Program-made: the position numbers and the translations under genes | Assembly: GCA_001029675.1 (NCBI GenBank) | Contig: CP011210.1 | Location: forward strand, 384,427-448,426 | DNA from: Candidatus Beckwithbacteria bacterium GW2011_GWC1_49_16 | Lineage (GTDB): Bacteria; Patescibacteriota; Microgenomatia; UBA1400; CG1-02-47-37 | Length of the DNA stretch: 64,000 bases | Direction of reading: 5' to 3' | The notes under the pieces: model-generated | Told to the model about the DNA's origin: nothing | The model's database searches: none | What the model saw: only the letters and a program-made list of their open reading frames with translations | Shown here: positions 9,396 to 16,814 of the stretch, in pieces | Layout: the number at the start of each line of letters is the position of its first letter | How positions within the stretch are numbered: the stretch's first letter is position 1

Positions 9396-9416
9396 ATTCT
9401 AGAGTATATCAGATAG

Positions 9417-9490
9417 TGGATCCTGTAGGACTCGAACCTACGACCTTCCGGATGTAAACCGGACGCTCTAACCGGCTGAGCTAAGGATCC
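9417..9490 (-). tRNA. tRNA-Val (anticodon TAC)
   Basis: Manual fold: acceptor GGATCCT/AGGATCC, anticodon loop TTTACAT, T-loop GGTTCGAGTCC. Confidence 0.9.
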
Positions 9491-9492
9491 AG

Positions 9493-9590
9493 TGTGCTCT
9501 ATTTACGAACAACTTCGAACTATTTTTAAACAGCAGGCTCGGTGCTAACGCCCCTCGCCAAGCTCCGGCGCGGCTGACGCCGCGCCTCCG
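9493..9590. repeat. Inverted repeat A, left arm: a 34-bp block (9493-9526) and a 26-bp block (9565-9590) carrying hairpin GGCGCGGC-TGAC-GCCGCGCC
   Basis: Both blocks are exact reverse complements of 10142-10175 and 10102-10127. The spacers between the blocks differ in the two arms (38 nt here, 14 nt in the right arm). Confidence 0.85.
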
Positions 9591-9633
9591 CTATTTTTTT
9601 CGCGCGCGATTTTGTACTCGCTTCGCGAGCATT

Positions 9634-9861
9634 TTACTCTCTGATAATTGGTACCACTGTTGCTTTGGCACCTTTATCAGCAATCGTTTTCCCCGGAGCT
9701 GGCTGTTCAATTATAATTATTTGGTCTCTATTCAAAAGTTCTAACAACGCCGCCTGATCACCATCTAAACCGTTCACCACTAAATTAACTTCATGTTGCC
9801 CCCCCTCTTGCGGTTGCCCCCGCTTAGGAGTTTTTCCTAAATCTTGTTGTTTTTCTGCCAT
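9634..9861 (-). CDS. hypothetical protein (75 aa) inside module A
   Basis: Lone ORF with no recognisable motif. Confidence 0.3.
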   Translation of the reverse strand: MAEKQQDLGKTPKRGQPQEGGQHEVNLVVNGLDGDQAALLELLNRDQIIIIEQPAPGKTIADKGAKATVVPIIRE

Positions 9862-10101
9862 TTAAATATCACCTCCATTTCTTTCTGCGTTATAGCCTAC
9901 TAATTGGTTTGAAGTATACCAAAAATTGACAAATTATGCTAACATAAAACTGTGCTCGATAATTGTGGGGATTTTTAATGCCCTCATTGGACGGATCCTC
10001 ACAGATTCGAGCACAACCAGTGAGGGCATTTAAGTTTTGTTCTTTAAAAATTTTCGCGCTTTTTCTTTTCCGCCTTCGGCGGAATTTCGAGCCGACTTTT
10101 T

Positions 10102-10175
10102 CGGAGGCGCGGCGTCAGCCGCGCCGGATCTTACCTTTTTGAAAATAGTTCGAAGTTGTTCGTAAATAGAGCACA
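10102..10175. repeat. Inverted repeat A, right arm
   Basis: Reverse complement of the left-arm blocks. Abuts repeat B by 5 nt, sharing GCACA. Confidence 0.85.
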
Positions 10176-10260
10176 AAAGGAGATCGGAAGGGTAGGCGCT
10201 GGCCGCGCCCGCCCTCACGGCCAGCGCCGCAGAGGCTTCGGACAGGGAAAATTCGAGCCG
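10171..10260. repeat. Inverted repeat B, left arm (90 bp; internal 11-bp-stem hairpin GGCGCTGGCCG...CGGCCAGCGCC)
   Basis: Exact reverse complement of 11728-11817. Confidence 0.9.
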
Positions 10261-10323
10261 GAAAAGAAAAAGAAGTAAGTGAAAAAGCGCGAAAATTTAA
10301 AACAAAAGAACAAGACAATAAAT

Positions 10324-11904
10324 ATGATCAAATACATCGCTTACTGCCGAAAATCAACTGATGAAAAAGACAAACAAATCATGTCTATTGAACAACAAAT
10401 GGAGGAATTGAAAGCATTTGCTCAAAGAGAGAATTTGGAAATTTCACAATTTCTGACAGAAGCGGAAACCGCGAAAGTTCCCGGACGACCAATTTTCAAT
10501 TCTCTTATTACCTTAATTGAAAAAGGACTTATCAACGGAATTATCAGTTGGCACCCGGACAGACTAGCTAGAAATTCAATTGATGGCGGAAAAATAATTT
10601 ATCTAGTCGATACTGGAAAATTACAAGCCCTAAAATTCCCGTCTTTTTGGTTTGAGAATACCCCGCAAGGAAAATTTATGCTTTCAATTGCTTTTGGTCA
10701 GTCAAAGTATTATGTGGATAATCTTTCCGAAAATGTTAAACGAGGATTGTATTTCAAACTTCGCCGTGGAGATTGGCCGTCTTACGCGCCATTAGGATAC
10801 AAAAACGATAGAAACACAAGGAGCGTGATGATAGAACCGCGCTCTGCGCGGCTAGTAAAAGAGGCATTCAAAAACTTTGCCTCGGGCGAATTTTCTTCAA
10901 TGAAAGATATTCGTGATCTATTTTTCAAAAACGAGATAACTCGTAGAAATGGAAAGCCTTTACATTTTAACCAAATTAGAGAAATGCTTCAGCGGACCTT
11001 TTATTATGGTTTGATGACGTATCGCGGAGAAACCTACGAAGGAAAACACAGGCCACTCATAACCAAAAAACTTTTTGATGAAGTGCAGAAAGTTTTGGAG
11101 AAGAAATATAACAGGAAACCGCAGAAACACGATTTTGCGTTTACTGGCTTTATCAAATGTAAAGAGTGCGACAGTTTCTTCACCGCTGAAAAACACAAAA
11201 AGTTTTATCCCAAAACCAGAGGCGAAGTTTGGTACACCTATTACCGTTGTGTAAAGAAAAAAGGTGTTTGCTCACAACCGTATTTACCAGAATCAGAACT
11301 TGAGAAACAATTACGAGATTTAATTGGCAGTGTTTCTCTCTCCGAAGTATTGGCAAACAAACTTTTGGCGATGGCAGAAAAGGACGGAGAGAAAGAAAAG
11401 CAGTTCGCCGTTGGCGAACTCCAAAAACTCTCATTTTCTCTAACTGAAATTGAAAAGAAACTGGATAAACTTCTCGAAAGCTATTTGGAAGAGATTGTTG
11501 ACACTGAAAGTTATCAAAGGAAAAAAGACGAGTTGCTTCAAATTAAAAAACTTTTGCAAGAGGAAATCGAGGAAATTAAGACCAAAGGTTCGAGTTGGCT
11601 CGAACCACTCAAAGAATTTATAAAAGAGGCCGCTGATGCGGCTAAAATCGCGCGCGCAAAAAATAATTGCAAAGATCTGGCGATCTTTGCAAAAAAAGTC
11701 GGCTCGAACTACTTCTTAAATGACAAGCGGCTCGAATTTTCCCTGTCCGAAGCCTCTGCGGCGCTGGCCGTGAGGGCGGGCGCGGCCAGCGCCTACCCTT
11801 CCGATCTCCTTTTGTGCCGAGGACAGGAGTTGAACCTGCACGGGCAAAGCCCACTACGTCCTCAACGTAGCCTGTCTACCAGTTCCAGCACCTCGGCATG
11901 TTAA
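10324..11904 (+). CDS. large serine recombinase (resolvase catalytic domain + recombinase domain + zinc ribbon + coiled coil)
   Basis: Catalytic motif YCRKSTDEKDKQ..SIEQQ, Cys cluster CKECD...YYRC, and a C-terminal coiled coil. Start is taken at MIKYIAYC, matching the paralog at 13311-14837. The open frame has no stop until 11904, so its tail is encoded by repeat B' and the antisense of tRNA-Leu(GAG) and is probably fortuitous. Confidence 0.8.
   Translation: MIKYIAYCRKSTDEKDKQIMSIEQQMEELKAFAQRENLEISQFLTEAETAKVPGRPIFNSLITLIEKGLINGIISWHPDRLARNSIDGGKIIYLVDTGKLQALKFPSFWFENTPQGKFMLSIAFGQSKYYVDNLSENVKRGLYFKLRRGDWPSYAPLGYKNDRNTRSVMIEPRSARLVKEAFKNFASGEFSSMKDIRDLFFKNEITRRNGKPLHFNQIREMLQRTFYYGLMTYRGETYEGKHRPLITKKLFDEVQKVLEKKYNRKPQKHDFAFTGFIKCKECDSFFTAEKHKKFYPKTRGEVWYTYYRCVKKKGVCSQPYLPESELEKQLRDLIGSVSLSEVLANKLLAMAEKDGEKEKQFAVGELQKLSFSLTEIEKKLDKLLESYLEEIVDTESYQRKKDELLQIKKLLQEEIEEIKTKGSSWLEPLKEFIKEAADAAKIARAKNNCKDLAIFAKKVGSNYFLNDKRLEFSLSEASAALAVRAGAASAYPSDLLLCRGQELNLHGQSPLRPQRSLSTSSSTSAC
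11728..11817. repeat. Inverted repeat B, right arm
   Basis: Reverse complement of 10171-10260. Overlaps the last 3 nt of tRNA-Leu(GAG). Confidence 0.9.
11815..11897 (-). tRNA. tRNA-Leu (anticodon GAG), class II
   Basis: Manual fold: acceptor GCCGAGG/CCTCGGC, anticodon loop TTGAGGA, T-loop GGTTCAACTCC. Confidence 0.75.
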
Positions 11905-11906
11905 AG

Positions 11907-11991
11907 TGCCACGGGTGAGAGTCGAACTCACACGAGCCAAAGGCCCACACGCTCCTGAAGCGTGCCTGTCTGCCAGTTCCAGCACCGTGGC
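11907..11991 (-). tRNA. tRNA-Leu (anticodon CAG), class II
   Basis: Manual fold: acceptor GCCACGG/CCGTGGC, anticodon loop TTCAGGA, T-loop GGTTCGACTCTC. Confidence 0.8.
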
Positions 11992-12042
11992 CCAAACCAA
12001 ACTTAAAGATATTTTAGCACAATCTGGTATACTAGAAGCCGA

Positions 12043-12115
12043 GGCAGGGTAGCCAAGGCGGTCACGGCGGGCGTCTGAAAAACGTCAGATACTGGTTCGA
12101 TTCCAGTCCCTGCCA
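12043..12115 (+). tRNA. tRNA-Phe (anticodon GAA)
   Basis: Manual fold: acceptor GGCAGGG/CCCTGCC, anticodon stem GGCGT/ACGTC with loop CTGAAAA, T-arm ACTGG-TTCGATT-CCAGT. Confidence 0.75.
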
Positions 12116-12123
12116 CAGACGGA

Positions 12124-12912
12124 ATGAGTAAAGACCACCAAACATTGAATGAATTCGTTAACCGTTTCTGGTATGTGCCTTCTGATATAGTGGCTAGACT
12201 AGCTGAGGCCTTGGTTTGGCAGGAACGCAGTTTTAAAAAACCAGTTTTAGACATTGGCTGCGGTGATGGCAGTATTGGTGAGTTGATTTTTAAAGGTAAA
12301 GTAATTGACATGGGGATAGATTTAAATCAGAAAGCCATTGAGACAGCGGCTGACAGCGATGTTTATAAAAAGACGAGAGCGGCCGATGCGACCAAATTGC
12401 CCTTTAAAAACAACAGCTATCAAACAGTGGTCAGCAACAGCACCTTTGAACACATTAACGACGATGTGCAAGCGGTCAAAGAAGCTTATCGAGTCTTAGA
12501 GCCTGGCGGTTATTTGTATTTGACTGTGCCGACGGATAAGTTTGAAGCAGCCGTTGCCAGGTTAGCCAGAACAGAGAAGAATTTAGCCAGAATTAATCAA
12601 AGGCTGGCACATTATCACTATCACAGTTTAAAGGACTGGAGAGTAATTTTAAAAAGGACCGGTTTTCAAACAGTTGAATTTAAGTATTTTTTCCCGGAGA
12701 GAATGGTCAATGTTTGGTATAGATTTTTTCGGCTAGTCACTTTTAAGCCAAATAAAAGGGAGTTGTGGTCTTATTTGAGCGACGATCGTTTTAAAAGGTT
12801 TATGCCAAAGAAATTGATAAAGGTGATTCTGTTTAAATATTTTCAAGGTTTTTATGGTGATTTATTCTCAAAGAAGGGTTGTTTGTTGTTTATCAAAGCG
12901 CTTAAGCGATGA
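12124..12912 (+). CDS. class I SAM-dependent methyltransferase
   Basis: Motif I VLDIGCGDGSIGE, plus the later acidic and LEPGG motifs of Methyltransf_11-type enzymes. Confidence 0.75.
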   Translation: MSKDHQTLNEFVNRFWYVPSDIVARLAEALVWQERSFKKPVLDIGCGDGSIGELIFKGKVIDMGIDLNQKAIETAADSDVYKKTRAADATKLPFKNNSYQTVVSNSTFEHINDDVQAVKEAYRVLEPGGYLYLTVPTDKFEAAVARLARTEKNLARINQRLAHYHYHSLKDWRVILKRTGFQTVEFKYFFPERMVNVWYRFFRLVTFKPNKRELWSYLSDDRFKRFMPKKLIKVILFKYFQGFYGDLFSKKGCLLFIKALKR

Positions 12913-12945
12913 TATAATGCCTAAGCTAATTAGTGAGTTTAAAGT

Positions 12946-13018
12946 GCGGGAGTAGCTCAGCTGGTAGAGCGTCTCGTTGCCAACGAGAAGGTCGCGGGTT
13001 CGAATCCCGTCTCCCGCT
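12946..13018 (+). tRNA. tRNA-Gly (anticodon GCC)
   Basis: Manual fold: acceptor GCGGGAG/CTCCCGC, anticodon loop TTGCCAA, T-loop GGTTCGAATCC. Confidence 0.9.
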
Positions 13019-13049
13019 CAAAACTGATTTCTTGTGGTAAAATTAGCCT

Positions 13050-13241
13050 ATGGTGTTAGGTAAAAGTCCGGAGTCCAGGCCGGGAGGCGACGGGCAGAGC
13101 CCGGAAGCGCCCGAGAAGCAGATTAAAAAGTCTTCGGCGCCGTCACCGTTGTCTTTAAAAGAGATCGCTTGGACTGCTGATAATGAGCTTAAGTTTCAGA
13201 TGGGCAATATGCACGGCGAGGTGCCGGTGAAGAAACCTTAA
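13050..13241 (+). CDS. hypothetical small protein (63 aa) between two tRNAs
   Basis: ORF only. Low complexity (Pro/Ser/Glu-rich). Confidence 0.2.
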   Translation: MVLGKSPESRPGGDGQSPEAPEKQIKKSSAPSPLSLKEIAWTADNELKFQMGNMHGEVPVKKP

Positions 13242-13270
13242 GGTTAAGATTTTGTTATAATTATCCCACT

Positions 13271-13339
13271 GCCGGATGGTGAAATGGCATCACAGAGGCC
13301 TTTGAAGCCTTTATTCTAGGTTCGAATCCTGGTCCGGCA
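13271..13339 (+). tRNA. tRNA-Gln (anticodon TTG), slightly atypical short D-arm
   Basis: Acceptor GCCGGAT/GTCCGGC, anticodon loop CTTTGAA, T-loop GGTTCGAATCC. At 69 nt the fold is a little irregular. Confidence 0.55.
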
Positions 13340-14837
13340 ACAGATTGGAATTTTTTTCAGAATTTTTCGCGTCGGTGGGGCGCGACGCGAATACATTCCA
13401 GCCTGGTGAGACGTAATTTACCAAGAGTTTTTGATTGTCTAAAAACAGGTTCGAGCTGACAGTTTTTGCCATGAATGCTAATTCAGGGCCATTATTTTTT
13501 GCGCGCATTGTTTTCCAGGCGTGAAGCGCCTGGTCTGTCCAATTAGAAAAAGGTTCGAGCCAAGAGTTGCCTGTGATGTTAATCTCCTTGAGTTTTTCTT
13601 GTAAGCCGGCCTTGGCTTGGATTAGTTCGTTTTTCTTGTCCTGGTAGCTTTGGGGATCAATCAGCTGGTCTAAGTAGGCATTGAGCAACCGGTCAAGCTT
13701 GGTTTCGATTGTCTTCAATTCATTATTTAAACCGTTAATTTCCGCCACGCTTTTGAGCTTGGCAGTTTGGCGGTCTTTTTCCAGCCAGGCAAGAAACTTT
13801 TTGTAGGCGGTCGGGGCTAAACTGACTTTTTGGATAATCTGCCTCATTTGAGTTTCCAGCTCTTTTTTAGGAGTATACCGCTGGTTACATTTACCTTTCT
13901 TTTTAGAACAACGGTAATAAGTATAAGTAACGGTATTGTTTGTCCGAGGGTAAAACTTGGTATGGGTTTCAGCGGTGATTGATGAACCGCATTCTCGGCA
14001 TTTAATCAATCCTAAAAAGTCAAACCCGGATTTAATGGAATTTTCCTGCCGTGAATGCTGTTTGACGATTTTTTGACAGCGGTCAAAAAGTTTCTTAGAA
14101 ATTAACGGCAGGTGGTTTCCGGCAAAGAGTTCGCCGCCAAAATTCATCAAGCCATAATAAAAGGGGTTAGATAAAATCCGCCGGGAAATGCTATCCAAAT
14201 GGATCGGTTTTCCCGCCCGGCTGAAAACCTTGTTTTGGCTCAAAAATCGCCGCATATCCACGTAAGTATAGCGGCCGGTAGCAAATAGCCTGAAGGCTTT
14301 GGCTATAAACTTGGCGCGGTTGGGGTCAACCACGATAGTTTTATCCGCTTTGTTGTTTAGGTAGCCAAGTGGGGCTTTGTTAGGCCAGTCGCCGCGCCTA
14401 AGTTTTTGCCGATTCCCCCGCTTAACATTTTCGGAAAGATTATCCACATAATACTTGGCTTCGGAAAAGGCCATGGAGATCATGAATTTGCCCTGCGGTG
14501 TATTGTCAAACCAGAAGGTGGGAAACTTTAGGTCAAGTAACTTGCCGGTATCCAGAAGGTAAATAATCTGGCCGCCGTCAATCGAGTTTCTGGCCAGCCG
14601 ATCGGGATGCCAGGCTAAAATTCCTTGGATCTCCCCCGCTTCAATTAATTGAATTAGTTGGTTAAATTCCACTCTACCAGGAATTTTGGCGGTTTTTGAT
14701 TCGGTGATAAATTTAACAATCTGTAAGTTTTCCCGTTGGGCGAACTCTTTTAATTCTTCAATCTGGCTTTCGATTGATAGCACCTGTTTATCTTTTTCGT
14801 CGGTACTTTTTCGACAGTAGGCGATGTATTTAATCAT
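13311..14837 (-). CDS. large serine recombinase, paralog of 10324-11904
   Basis: N-terminus MIKYIAYCRKSTDEKDKQVLSIESQ, zinc ribbon CRECGS...YYRC, coiled coil. The last ~35 codons lie in repeat C, and the final 8 codons plus the stop overlap the 3' end of tRNA-Gln. Confidence 0.85.
   Translation of the reverse strand: MIKYIAYCRKSTDEKDKQVLSIESQIEELKEFAQRENLQIVKFITESKTAKIPGRVEFNQLIQLIEAGEIQGILAWHPDRLARNSIDGGQIIYLLDTGKLLDLKFPTFWFDNTPQGKFMISMAFSEAKYYVDNLSENVKRGNRQKLRRGDWPNKAPLGYLNNKADKTIVVDPNRAKFIAKAFRLFATGRYTYVDMRRFLSQNKVFSRAGKPIHLDSISRRILSNPFYYGLMNFGGELFAGNHLPLISKKLFDRCQKIVKQHSRQENSIKSGFDFLGLIKCRECGSSITAETHTKFYPRTNNTVTYTYYRCSKKKGKCNQRYTPKKELETQMRQIIQKVSLAPTAYKKFLAWLEKDRQTAKLKSVAEINGLNNELKTIETKLDRLLNAYLDQLIDPQSYQDKKNELIQAKAGLQEKLKEINITGNSWLEPFSNWTDQALHAWKTMRAKNNGPELAFMAKTVSSNLFLDNQKLLVNYVSPGWNVFASRPTDAKNSEKNSNLLPDQDSNLE
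13341..13418. repeat. Inverted repeat C, left arm (78 bp; internal hairpin TCGCGTCG...CGACGCGA)
   Basis: Reverse complement of 15300-15377 with one mismatch. Starts 1 nt after the discriminator base of tRNA-Gln. Confidence 0.9.
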
Positions 14838-15252
14838 TTTTTTTAATCCAACTAGACAATATTATCCCAATTAGAATTGTTAATGATATTGAGATTAAAA
14901 TATTACATATTGGTATCAGATTAAATACCGTCTGTAATGTTTGTAATAAAGTAAAAAATATGGCAATAAAACTTAGTGAAAGTGTGGTTCTTTGTAAACT
15001 AATATTTGTTTTTTCTAGTTTTTGACTTTGTTCATTAAGACTTTTTATTGTTGAGTTTAATCTCCGAAGTTTAATGTCTAGCTTTAACATCAATCCTATA
15101 TTTGTGATAAAACTGAAAACTTGCCAACCCTCTGGTGTGTTACTTTTAAGCCCAGCGTTTGTGCGCACATCTTGGGCAAGTTTGAGAATTTCTTCAAAAG
15201 GAAAGTCTTTGATTTTCTTTAAACGCTCGTCTATCGGAATTTCTTTATTCAT
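14830..15252 (-). CDS. hypothetical protein with a C-terminal TM segment, overlapping the recombinase start by 8 nt
   Basis: 140 aa ORF. N-terminal soluble part, then a hydrophobic tail. Confidence 0.45.
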   Translation of the reverse strand: MNKEIPIDERLKKIKDFPFEEILKLAQDVRTNAGLKSNTPEGWQVFSFITNIGLMLKLDIKLRRLNSTIKSLNEQSQKLEKTNISLQRTTLSLSFIAIFFTLLQTLQTVFNLIPICNILISISLTILIGIILSSWIKKND

Positions 15253-15299
15253 AGTTTTTTAAAATATTGCGTTTTCTTTTCCTGTTTTTATTTCCTTTT

Positions 15300-15377
15300 A
15301 ATTACGTTTCACCAGGCTGGAATGTATTCGCGTCGCGCCCCACCGACGCGAAAAATTCTGAAAAAAATTCCAATCTG
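15300..15377. repeat. Inverted repeat C, right arm
   Basis: Reverse complement of 13341-13418. Directly contiguous with repeat D. Confidence 0.9.
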
Positions 15378-15481
15378 TTGACAGTTTACCGAAAAGTTCG
15401 AACTTCTTTCCAGCAAATTGTTAAATGATTGGCTCGGCCGCTGCGTGGCCTCGCCTTTTTGGCACTCGCTTCGCTCGTGCC
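15378..15481. repeat. Inverted repeat D, left arm (104 bp, hairpin-rich)
   Basis: Exact reverse complement of 16711-16814. Confidence 0.9.
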
Positions 15482-15586
15482 TTGAAAACTGTCAGCTCGA
15501 AGCAGATTACTATCTGCTAAAAGAAAACGCAAAATTTTTAAAGAGCTAGATCAATTTGAATACATTAAGTAGTATAATAGATTGAT

Positions 15587-16324
15587 ATGTGGGTAACAAT
15601 ACTTGTAATTGCCATTATCCTTTATTACTTCTATTACAAATTAGAAAAAAGGGTTAATTTTCTTGAAAAAAGCAAAGGCCCAGGATATTCTGTTCGTTTT
15701 CGAATAGATGCTCATAATGCGGTTATAAAACACAAAATGCTTGGCAAGCTTACAAATATTCAAAGCGCAATAAAAGGAAAAGATTACAGTAGCTGGACTG
15801 AAACTGAAAAAAGTAAGTTAAGAAAAATTTACAAAAAATCACTTGATAAAAGTATCGTTGATATTACCTATTTAGCTTCAGAAAACGCTTATTTTATAAA
15901 TGATGGGCATAAAACTAATATTGTGTTAAGAGATGAAATAAGTACGTTAATATACTCTTCATTTGTAATTGGAGACGAAAATACAATTGAATCACCTGTC
16001 ATTGAATTTTCAGTTTATGAAAGATTAGTGAAAGAGGGTAAAAATAACTATAAATGGGTATTAGCTCCATGTCTTGAATATCGTGAAAATATGCTTGATT
16101 TAGAAAAGAAAAATGACCAAATTGACATACTGTTTGAATTTCCACTTTATGAAAACCATGATGAACAAAAAATGAAACAGTTGGGATTTAAAGTTACTAC
16201 CAATAAAGATTACCCGGAAGGATGTAAAGATATTTTCGGGAAAGAGTTTGCGTTTACTCAAAGTATCTATGAAAAAAATGGAGTTGAATTAAAATATTTT
16301 ACAATGTATACAAGCTTGAATTAA
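15587..16324 (+). CDS. hypothetical protein with an N-terminal TM helix (AT-rich)
   Basis: 245 aa ORF with no recognisable motif. Confidence 0.45.
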   Translation: MWVTILVIAIILYYFYYKLEKRVNFLEKSKGPGYSVRFRIDAHNAVIKHKMLGKLTNIQSAIKGKDYSSWTETEKSKLRKIYKKSLDKSIVDITYLASENAYFINDGHKTNIVLRDEISTLIYSSFVIGDENTIESPVIEFSVYERLVKEGKNNYKWVLAPCLEYRENMLDLEKKNDQIDILFEFPLYENHDEQKMKQLGFKVTTNKDYPEGCKDIFGKEFAFTQSIYEKNGVELKYFTMYTSLN

Positions 16325-16336
16325 TTATAAACTTTT

Positions 16337-16600
16337 ATGACAAAGGATTTTACAAATTATTGTGATGATTCTGGACAAAAAATTTATGTTGGAGATCTAG
16401 TTACATTAGCATCTCCCCTCAAAAATGAAATTGATAAAATAAACATTTTTAAAGTTGTAAAAGGTAAAAACGATTACGAAATTGTATTTTACAAAGGATC
16501 AATGAGTAGTACAGATAGAAATTACCGACAAAAATTATCCGGAGCATATAAAGTAATTGGCAATATTAAAACAGGGATTGATGAGAGTTTGTTAGAGTAG
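16337..16600 (+). CDS. hypothetical small protein (87 aa)
   Basis: ORF 13 nt downstream of the previous gene. Confidence 0.4.
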   Translation: MTKDFTNYCDDSGQKIYVGDLVTLASPLKNEIDKINIFKVVKGKNDYEIVFYKGSMSSTDRNYRQKLSGAYKVIGNIKTGIDESLLE

Positions 16601-16710
16601 ATCTTGGTTATAGGCATTAGATTTGAATGTTATAATAACTTTATTAGTAATAAAGCGATCAGAAAACTCGCCCGTAAGGGCGAGCAATGCGCGCAAAAAA
16701 TAATGTAAAG

Positions 16711-16814
16711 GCACGAGCGAAGCGAGTGCCAAAAAGGCGAGGCCACGCAGCGGCCGAGCCAATCATTTAACAATTTGCTGGAAAGAAGTTCGAACTTTTC
16801 GGTAAACTGTCAAC
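16711..16814. repeat. Inverted repeat D, right arm
   Basis: Reverse complement of 15378-15481. Followed by two tight GC hairpins (CCCCGG-AGTGA-CCGGGG and AAGCCC-GAAA-GGGCTT). Confidence 0.9.

Follow-up and report, generated by a model that had tools for sequence, protein, structure and literature searches.

A 64,000-nucleotide window of Candidatus Beckwithbacteria bacterium GW2011_GWC1_49_16 (assembly GCA_001029675.1; contig CP011210.1, positions 384,427–448,426 of the forward strand) was analysed, in which two recombinase genes bounded by long inverted repeats stand among clustered tRNA genes. The results indicate that this window carries two site-specific integrative elements of one very large family in Patescibacteria. 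The best overall explanation, which we regard as highly probable, is that these are tRNA-targeting large serine recombinase (LSR) elements whose attachment site, attP, lies within the LSR open reading frame (ORF) and is accompanied by an inverted duplicate. Positions given below are those of the window.

Two integrative elements at tRNA genes

Six tRNA genes were located between 9416 and 13341, for which ARAGORN and Rfam agreed; an earlier reading of the letters of the window (hereafter, the sequence-only reading) had likewise counted six within 4 kb. An inverted-repeat search of the window gave one pair flanking each recombinase gene (10171–10260/11728–11817, 90 nt, 100% identical; 13338–13418/15300–15380, 81 nt, 99% identical). 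A further pair abutted each of these, at 9493–9533 (plus 9560–9590)/10102–10175 beside the LSR1 pair and at 15377–15483/16708–16814 (107 nt, 100% identical) beside the LSR2 pair, with an overlap of 4–5 nt between the two pairs of each element. The 64-kb window contained no long inverted repeats beyond those of the two elements, and the only known RNA families found in an Rfam scan of the arms were tRNAs. The outer arm of each LSR-flanking pair ended on tRNA positions 71–73. For tRNA-Leu(gag), this agrees with the earlier placement of the repeat end at 11817, over the last 3 nt of the gene. For tRNA-Gln(ttg), the repeat had been placed at 13341, 2 nt past a discriminator at 13339; it actually starts at 13338, in the last 3 nt of the gene, and the discriminator is at 13340. 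The unit had also been described as a recombinase module with a single repeat pair, and proved to comprise an LSR module and a cargo module with its own inverted repeat.

The arm on the LSR-gene side of the core was named H and that on the cargo side K, with primes for the inverted copies. Read in the sense of the tRNA, both elements had the order tRNA, core, H–LSR (antisense)–H′, core′, K–cargo–K′, core, host flank (Table 1). The outer cores were direct repeats (TGTGC in element 1 and CAAC in element 2), and the internal core was their reverse complement. Because the outer cores are direct repeats, the outer junctions were read as attL (tRNA–core–H) and attR (K′–core–flank). The internal junction was an exact inverted copy of K′–core–H, that is, of the attP expected from excision. 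Judging from these junctions, the crossover in the window elements lies inside the 4–5 nt core at tRNA positions 71–74, which leaves the tRNA intact, and each element was inserted by its own LSR.

Element 1 spans 9493–11817 (2.3 kb) at tRNA-Leu(gag), and element 2 spans 13338–16814 (3.5 kb) at tRNA-Gln(ttg). Deletion of 9498–11817 in silico rebuilt the sequence ...CCTCGGCACA-CT-GGATCC..., with tRNA-Leu(gag) directly upstream of tRNA-Val(tac). An unoccupied site was found in a related metagenome contig (L101), which reads ...CGCGCACA-CAT-GGTCGC... (Leu(gag)-CACA-Val(tac)) and has an element of 83% identity at tRNA-Leu(tag) instead. This empty Leu(gag)–Val(tac) junction matches the window minus element 1, which confirms the limits of that element; tRNA-Val(tac) would originally have been situated 2–4 nt downstream of tRNA-Leu(gag). 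The comparison with related DNA that had been suggested for both sites thus succeeded for tRNA-Leu; for element 2, the fetched loci yielded neither an empty tRNA-Gln site nor a syntenic right flank. The integrase-type geometry at tRNA genes that had been proposed earlier was borne out by the insertion at tRNA 3′ ends, the direct-repeat cores and the empty site. The term integration hotspot was less apt, as two different elements occupy two different tRNA genes of one tRNA cluster.

The two recombinase ORFs (10279–11904 on the plus strand, 541 aa; 13311–14837 on the minus strand, 508 aa) both contained Resolvase, Recombinase and Zn_ribbon_recom domains. PF00239, the resolvase catalytic domain, matched at E=2e-18 and 1e-22, and PF07508 and PF13408 matched in both proteins; the domain scan gave serine-recombinase domains only, with no tyrosine recombinase domain. 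The nucleophile motif (Arg-x-Ser) YCRKSTDE was nearly invariant among 36 homologs. In an AlphaFold model, long helices (residues 341–444) lay between the zinc-ribbon strands as a coiled coil, and the best relative in the PDB was the SPbeta integrase. Both proteins are thus LSRs as judged from their domains. They were 56% identical to each other, with the similarity stopping where the repeats start. In total, 7741 homologs were detectable, mostly in Patescibacteria, also called the candidate phyla radiation (CPR). No record of an exact copy of LSR2 was found in other assemblies.

Recurrence in Patescibacteria

As a family sample, 80 genome loci and 80 metagenome loci were fetched, and orientation was classified over 161 loci. 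In approximately 95 of the 161 Patescibacteria loci, an inverted-repeat arm inside the LSR 3′ end adjoined a convergent tRNA gene. An abutting K repeat pair was present in 55 of these 95 canonical loci, and 25 more had at least the K′ motif beside H′; the internal K′ motif was detected also in loci whose far K arm was not found. The logic of three junctions held in the window and in 25–28 other elements, with cores of 1–11 nt at the tRNA end. The targets comprised at least 15 tRNA identities across the family. The H arms were mostly 76–147 nt and the K arms 46–274 nt long, usually with 97–100% identity between copies, and the elements measured 2–9 kb.

The cargo was 0.5–7.2 kb long (median 1.8 kb) and comprised 138 ORFs in 118 protein clusters, 75% of which were transcribed away from the LSR gene (103 vs 35 ORFs). 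Examples included N6 and C5 DNA methylases, ABC and MFS transporters, a helix-turn-helix regulator, a Gp49 toxin, a reverse transcriptase and an aldo-keto reductase. The cargo yielded no replication gene, 8 of its 138 ORFs having been scanned. A phage origin was rejected: only 3 weak matches were obtained among the 2.9 million viral contigs of IMG/VR, and the elements contained no phage genes.

A rival reading holds that each element consists of two independent units, namely a resident LSR platform and an integron-like cargo cassette, each with its own palindromic att sites (H′-x-H and K′-x-K). Cargo turnover is indeed much faster than that of the LSR, as seen in a locus (L082) with an 88%-identical LSR and unrelated cargo, and the cargo ORFs are spread over many protein clusters. 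Moreover, the same K′ arms recur with different H arms and different tRNA targets (L009, L013 and L025), and the order of recombinase, site and cassette resembles that of intI, attI and cassette. However, every element has an internal core that is the reverse complement of both outer ones, CAAC and GTTG of element 2 have no common dinucleotide, and separate insertion is disfavoured because a 2-bp staggered exchange would leave direct rather than inverted repeats. In addition, no K-less element was found, and the K′ motif always adjoins H′. We therefore consider two independent units improbable.

It was also asked whether the inverted duplications had been made by the metagenome assemblers. Many related contigs do break exactly at the repeat arms. 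Against this, independent assemblies made with different pipelines, more than 100 in number, show the same architecture; a complete genome (L012, CP055307.1) and a chromosome-level assembly (L005, OZ246414.1), which count as complete or long-read genomes, are among them. Because of these the architecture is not attributed to assembly. Furthermore, the arm sequences differ between elements with the logic conserved, and imperfect arms (92% identical in a metagenome contig, L171, described below) could not be collapsed by an assembler. An artefact is hardly conceivable.

The LSR reading frame and its probable native C-terminus

The ORF of LSR1 has no stop before 11902–11904 and reads antisense through the whole of tRNA-Leu(gag), as noted in the sequence-only reading; the 8 final codons plus stop that were ascribed there to tRNA-Gln in LSR2 were likewise correct, while repeat C supplies 27 codons instead of about 35. 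To quantify this property, stops were counted in three frames between the end of the conserved domains and the tRNA discriminator for 119 LSR/tRNA pairs. A stop occurred in the LSR frame in 3 pairs and in the other two frames in 51 and 72, respectively. The LSR frame was open to the tRNA in 116/119 pairs. Read-through of the LSR frame into the tRNA is beyond chance, and H is regarded as translated sequence because of this difference between the frames. The finding that would speak for a different arrangement, relatives away from tRNA genes that end before the repeat, was not encountered, given the approximately 95 loci at tRNA genes and the read-through above.

This prevalence, together with the many homologs ending in ..DSN.. 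peptides, might suggest that the antisense tRNA codons are an evolved C-terminus and the far repeat copy a by-product. On the other hand, the LSR frame relative to the T-loop was distributed 56/40/23 over the 119 pairs, 79 stops lay inside the tRNA and 36 beyond it, the extensions ranged from 1 to >700 codons, and the tail differs with each tRNA. The tRNA-derived codons appear to be non-functional, because both their frame relative to the tRNA and the position of the stop vary widely. A functional extension is accordingly very improbable, all the more as an alternative tail encoded in K is conserved as protein, with a fixed frame and stop. To the question raised earlier of whether the tRNA-derived codons are functional, the answer is thus that they are not conserved, and that the conserved C-terminus is encoded in the K arm, across the element.

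This alternative tail was recognised when the ORF was continued from H through the core into K, by way of the reverse complement of the internal junction, in the form expected of an excised circle (107 elements). Nearly all of them gave the same short peptide, with a frame ratio of 61:7:1 and a stop at a median of 44 nt. The conserved motif encoded by K is [VIL]-[YF]-x-[KEQ]-[IV]-R-T-x-F, followed by a stop and often by a hairpin. Examples of tails, each ending at a stop, are SLYEKIRTIFQR, LVFGKIRTHFKENC and AVYKKCRTSFC, as well as SIYEQLRTIFKQQARC in element 1 and TVYRKVRTSFQQIVK in element 2 of the window. On 52 non-redundant K arms, the codon-position entropies were 0.24/0.59/1.67 for the Thr and 0.66/0.45/1.47 for the Phe, and the Arg was encoded by CGA, CGG, CGC or AGA. 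This third-position wobble argues for selection on the protein, beyond a DNA motif alone. In the AlphaFold model of a natural protein with this tail, it formed a helix (residues 494–514, pLDDT ~73–79).

Proteins that actually carry the native tail were also found, with 6 clear cases among the 120 best homologs (including P0055, P0056, P0058, P0077 and P0106), and contigs L167–L171 had the order LSR–H–core–K–cargo. The predicted native tail of LSR2 ends ...NSNLLTVYRKVRTSFQQIVK and its integrated, tRNA-derived tail ...NSNLLPDQDSNLE; a 75%-identical relative of LSR2 (P0058, locus L167) ends ...AVYRKIRTSFQQIVK, which is the tail predicted from the internal junction of the window. In a 2.4-kb metagenome contig (L171, 577–2398), both attP copies were intact and inverted around the LSR gene. 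These copies could not be confused by an assembler because they are only 92% identical, with the mismatches clustered in the first ~25 nt of H beside the core CAAC. This contig, which has no terminal overlap, is probably the free form.

From these results we strongly infer that the attP core is located inside the LSR ORF, ~13–17 codons before the native stop, and that H encodes ~30 real codons. Similarly, the junctions strongly suggest that the long inverted repeats go back to a single duplication, in which the last ~190 bp of the LSR gene, attP included, are repeated upstream of it in inverted orientation. Two abutting repeat pairs are then seen because integration splits one copy into H (at attL) and K′ (at attR), and the integrated ORF lacks its own stop because antisense tRNA sequence, in no conserved frame, takes the place of the native tail on integration. 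The sequence-only reading had rightly remarked that the inverted repeats are long and unusual and that the far copy carries an antisense copy of the recombinase C-terminal coding sequence (the H′ arms); they do not replace short att half-sites, however, but contain them.

Half-sites

In the K′ arm, GTTCGAA is followed first by a T-rich run, then by a short segment of variable sequence and lastly by the core. GTTCGAA of K′ was compared with the T-loop GGTTCGA of the tRNA in 25 elements. In 24 of them it lay further from the discriminator than the T-loop did, by 4 bp in 13 elements and by 5 bp in 11, the shift being measured on the tRNA/K′ side. In the attB sites of serine integrases, the motif of the zinc-ribbon domain has been shown to sit 5 bp nearer the centre than it does in attP (Rutherford et al. 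2013, PMC3783163). Because the 4–5 bp shift fits this rule, our alignments strongly suggest that K′ provides the P arm and the tRNA the B arm, the T-loop serving as outer motif. In the H arm, GAnAT was conserved at +7 to +11, and a GC hairpin was present. It was also considered whether H might imitate the T-arm of the tRNA as a B-type site, with which the motif positions agreed poorly; an outward promoter in the K′ arm was dropped after a consensus scan gave it no support.

Features of the two elements

The coordinates of the features are listed in Table 1.

Table 1. Coordinates of tRNA genes, attachment-site components and ORFs of the two elements in the window.
Feature	Coordinates	Strand	Remarks
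tRNA-Val(tac)	9416..9490	-	Host flank (B′ side) of element 1; ARAGORN, Rfam
attR core TGTGC, element 1	9493..9497		Direct repeat of 11813–11817
K arm, attR-side copy, element 1	9498..9590	+	Encodes SIYEQLRTIFKQQARC in LSR1 frame; stop TAA 9546–9548
Cargo ORF, element 1	9634..9861	-	75 aa, no family match; transcription away from LSR1
K′ arm, internal attI-side copy, element 1	10102..10170	+	T-loop mimic GTTCGAA
Internal core GCACA, element 1	10171..10175		Inverted vs both outer cores; common to both inverted-repeat pairs
H′ arm, element 1	10176..10260	+	Non-coding inverted copy of pre-core LSR1 codons; 90 nt, 100% incl. core
LSR1	10324..11904	+	ATG 10324 (ORF caller: GTG 10279); final 29 codons antisense to tRNA-Leu(gag)
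H arm, element 1	11728..11812	+	Coding 3′ part of LSR1; 13-bp GC hairpin
attL core TGTGC, element 1	11813..11817		tRNA-Leu(gag) positions 71–73 plus 2 nt
tRNA-Leu(gag)	11815..11897	-	Target (putative B arm) of element 1; complete incl. discriminator 11815; ARAGORN, Rfam
tRNA-Gln(ttg)	13270..13340	+	Target (putative B arm) of element 2; intact, discriminator 13340; ARAGORN, Rfam
LSR2	13311..14837	-	508 aa; last 8 codons plus stop antisense to tRNA-Gln; 27 codons from repeat C
attL core CAAC, element 2	13338..13341		tRNA-Gln end
H arm, element 2	13342..13418	-	Coding 3′ part of LSR2, with hairpin
orf140	14830..15252	-	Within element 2 LSR module, overlaps LSR2 start; no family match
H′ arm, element 2	15300..15376	+	Inverted copy of H
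Internal core GTTG, element 2	15377..15380		Inverted vs outer CAAC
K arm, internal copy, element 2	15381..15483	+	With H′ encodes predicted native tail ...NSNLL-TVYRKVRTSFQQIVK; stop TGA 15426–15428
Cargo, element 2	15587..16600	+	orf245 and orf87 (weak YopX-like match); transcription away from LSR2
K′ arm, attR-side copy, element 2	16708..16810	+	107 nt, 100% incl. core
attR core CAAC, element 2	16811..16814		Direct repeat of 13338–13341; host flank after

In element 1, the attR-side K arm was 98% identical to both K arms of the related L101 element and had a GC hairpin (9567–9586) with a T-run after the stop. Compared with the attR-side copy and with both copies of the L101 element, the internal K′ arm was missing 24 nt; because of this loss, the spare copy of element 1 is considered slightly degenerate, and its virtual tail would extend to 62 aa. 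In element 2, the ORF of the native tail (15267–15428) spans H′ and the K arm, and a terminator-like hairpin with a T-run (15436–15460) follows its stop in the internal K arm. orf140 is predicted to encode a coiled-coil or membrane-like protein and is a candidate accessory or directionality factor; it was not present in the relative with the 88%-identical LSR. A motif, GAAAACGCAAAA(T)TTTT, occurred in the window at 10282–10302, 15257–15280 (minus strand) and 15519–15542, as well as at 3–20 and 1650–1667 of L169. These sites lie just upstream of the LSR starts and just inside the cargo by the K arms, facing outward around the internal att site, and could be a shared operator or promoter element.

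Proposed role of the spare inverted copy

The spare inverted attP was universal in the family. The arms exceed the length of a half-site by far, and their copies are nearly identical although only one of them is coding, which implies ongoing homogenisation. The LSR gene was always convergent with the tRNA gene (95 loci vs 0).

With these properties in mind, we propose the following mechanism. The free form would make full-length LSR and integrate. Use of the attP at the 3′ end of its own gene would remove the native tail, by which the LSR would be changed or disabled and the element locked. The spare attP would be left in the chromosome, where it would be recombination-competent and could react with a second tRNA. 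In rare cases the LSR module might invert via the spare copy, through the cores or through homologous recombination of the 80–130 bp H arms; such inversion would rebuild the intact ORF, place the LSR gene downstream of the tRNA promoter and re-arm excision. The integrated, tail-swapped orientation would be an absorbing state, and in this proposal only one orientation is assembled beside tRNAs for that reason.

That loss of the tail locks the element, with the spare attP and 3′ end serving as a reset, is put forward tentatively and is somewhat less probable than its opposite. The wider idea of a self-locking and self-resetting device, in which the DNA state sets the LSR isoform, no separate directionality factor is required and the inverted spare attP is the reset, is possible but rather doubtful. 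Equal doubt attaches to the suggestion that an LSR with a swapped tail is locked or has its direction changed, and that the spare attP drives chromosomal inversions between isoacceptor tRNA genes. If the self-resetting scheme were true, the elements would be engines of chromosomal inversion in streamlined CPR genomes.

Several points weigh against this scheme and the site assignments beneath it. A flipped LSR module, with the tRNA co-oriented upstream of LSR/H′, occurred in none of the 161 loci, compared with ~95 canonical ones; inversion, if any, must therefore be rare or transient. Recombination of attL with attP is not a reaction of canonical serine integrases, and for a site-specific flip non-canonical behaviour would be required. 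The tail-swapped LSR may still be active, and a family scan recognised no recombination directionality factor in the element proteins. The H arm has GAnAT at +7 to +11 as its sole mark of a P′ half-site. The contigs with native tails are short (2–4 kb), and except for L171, some could be repeat paths of the assembler or tandem arrays (L169). Finally, by a strict rule of hairpin plus T-run applied to 87 K arms, a terminator-like structure was present in 12 (2 in the reverse direction).

Inverted repeats that flank a serine recombinase gene also recall phase-variation switches of the Hin, Gin or shufflon-like type, in which the segment between the repeats would be invertible and the tRNA position incidental or a source of promoter. 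The repeats are perfect, the attL and internal cores are inverted as inversion demands, and homologous cargo genes are found in both orientations among distant elements. Nevertheless, one orientation was seen in 95 loci and the other in none, the enzymes are large serine recombinases with asymmetric P- and B-type half-sites instead of small invertases, the outer cores are direct repeats with an existing empty site, and the strand bias of the cargo is 3:1 (103 vs 35). A phase switch is accordingly improbable, to about the same degree as two independent units. The phase switch, the two units and the functional antisense codons all fit worse than a tRNA-targeting element with attP in its LSR gene and an inverted duplicate.

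Cargo orientation was tried as evidence of inversion and given up, because the shared cargo was too sparse and too diverged. Three proteins with K-like tails (P0108, P0025 and P0065) were considered as flipped isomers and proved to belong to a tandem array (L081) and to insertions at non-tRNA pseudo-sites (L162 and L163).

A module in another locus (L040, 7802–9588) bears on rearrangements of this kind. There, a pair of tRNA-Glu genes in inverted orientation (ttc and ctc) encloses an LSR module that has no K′ arm, and both genes adjoin an H arm, with ..AGTCAC followed directly by ACATTGGGAAT.. at the joint. This is consistent with recombination of the internal attP with a second tRNA, giving a chromosomal inversion. 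Together with tandem accretion at a K arm in L081, it speaks for a competent internal attP.

Comparison with known systems

The elements resemble those of serine integrases (Bxb1, phiC31, A118/LI and SPbeta SprA) in the resolvase, recombinase and zinc-ribbon domains, the long coiled coil, the short att sites and a P-type outer motif 4–5 bp further out than the B-type motif. They differ in that serine integrases target protein-coding genes, whereas the targets here are tRNA 3′ ends with the T-loop as the putative zinc-ribbon motif, and in that attP lies inside the integrase ORF with a second, inverted attP upstream of the gene. Their tiny size (2–9 kb), their lack of phage genes and their near-absence from IMG/VR likewise set them apart from the elements of phage serine integrases.

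The SSV1-type archaeal integrase is a tyrosine recombinase with attP inside int, and integration into a tRNA gene divides int into two large parts. The present elements appear to share with it a recombination site within the integrase ORF, the tRNA target and an integrase altered in the integrated state; however, the enzyme is a serine recombinase, only the last ~13–17 codons are lost, and a spare inverted copy of the lost end is kept. In the mycobacteriophages BPs and Brujita, attP lies in the repressor gene and a C-terminal tag is removed on integration by a tyrosine integrase; there is no inverted spare. Here as there, integration changes the C-terminus of an element-encoded protein, so that the DNA state would determine the isoform, the protein being the repressor in those phages and the integrase here.

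In the yeast 2-micron plasmid (Flp/FRT, 599-bp inverted repeats), two inverted targets split the molecule into two unique segments, as in the putative free form L171; Flp, however, is a tyrosine recombinase acting on a replicon, and its inversion serves copy-number amplification, whereas here one site is consumed by integration. The serine invertases Hin, Gin, Cin and PinQ also have a serine recombinase gene in or next to a segment bounded by inverted repeats, but they are small (~190 aa) with a C-terminal helix-turn-helix, 26-bp sites, a Fis enhancer and both orientations, none of which was seen here. Transposons and insertion sequences with terminal inverted repeats differ as well, since the ends K and H are unrelated to each other, the repeat pairs are internal and insertion is site-specific at tRNA ends.

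Tycheposons, of which 474/501 use tyrosine recombinases and which duplicate ~40 nt of the tRNA (bioRxiv 10.1101/2020.12.28.424599), and other tRNA genomic islands are alike in being small cargo elements at tRNA genes with tandem accretion and tRNA 3′ remnants. In contrast to them, the present elements have an LSR, a duplication of only 4–5 nt, an integrase gene convergent on the tRNA and internal inverted repeats. A full-text literature search gave no description of attP inside a serine-integrase ORF or of an obligatory second inverted attP, and neither the tycheposon paper (same reference) nor a survey of programmed inversions (PMC9881135) covers this architecture.

Serine integrases are important tools of genome engineering, and the control of their directionality is still an active question. 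A family with attP in the ORF, in which the integration state rewrites the C-terminus and a second inverted attP is kept, would be a new regulatory design. If the T-loop is recognised as we suppose and specificity is tuned by the acceptor end, the family could provide a ready-made panel of orthogonal integrases with at least 15 tRNA targets. Moreover, Patescibacteria have few recognised mobile elements, and these 2–9 kb cassettes appear to be a major vehicle of accessory genes; they also appear to cause rearrangements of tRNA clusters and contig breaks in metagenome-assembled genomes (MAGs).

Further observations

Insertions at other sites were also met. A complete K+H element lies inside another LSR gene in L038 (869–4565) and L151 (~3093), at the same point in both, between the codons for ..KFMLS and (I/L)AFGQSKYYVDN.... 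Such insertion inside an LSR gene accounts for the 'fusion' recombinases of 865–883 aa (P0005, P0007, P0010, P0011, P0014 and P0020). The T-loop-like TGGTTCGAAAA (FWFEN codons) was tried as the target of the insertions within LSR genes and rejected, being ~30 nt off and on the wrong side in L038. In L081 (5064–11715) and L169, chains of the order K1–H1(LSR)–K2–H2(LSR)–tRNA were observed, in which an LSR reads into a foreign K arm. These chains are interpreted as tandem accretion at a resident outer K arm (attR), with the K arm standing in for the tRNA. In L162 (9505–9578) and L163 (6848–6890), insertion occurred at non-tRNA pseudo-sites overlapping the 3′ ends of protein-coding genes, where a T-loop-like ATTCGAAC or TTTAGAAC (TTCGAAC or TTAGAAC motif) was situated at about the usual distance from the core. 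Truncated or duplicated tRNA 3′ fragments were found between H and the tRNA, or replacing the tRNA, in L156 (3709–3899), L155 (1752–1868), L008 (from 9494) and L147 (from 8498), and are probably footprints of earlier elements.

Many of the MAG records titled 'binchicken' with these CPR loci (L005, L006, L013, L016 and others) are labelled 'uncultured Gammaproteobacteria' or 'Pseudomonadales', which are probably taxonomic mislabels. In another Patescibacteria MAG, ARAGORN called a tRNA with anticodon CTA ('tRNA-Pyl') beside tRNA-Arg and tRNA-Lys (L024, 9658–9733). In the window, the tRNA genes Phe-Gly-Gln are on the strand opposite to Leu-Leu-Val, with a methyltransferase gene between Phe and Gly. 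The cluster Leu-Leu-Val-Phe-Gly-Gln showed a different rearrangement or inversion in each of L004, L005 and L101, with the elements always at its edges.

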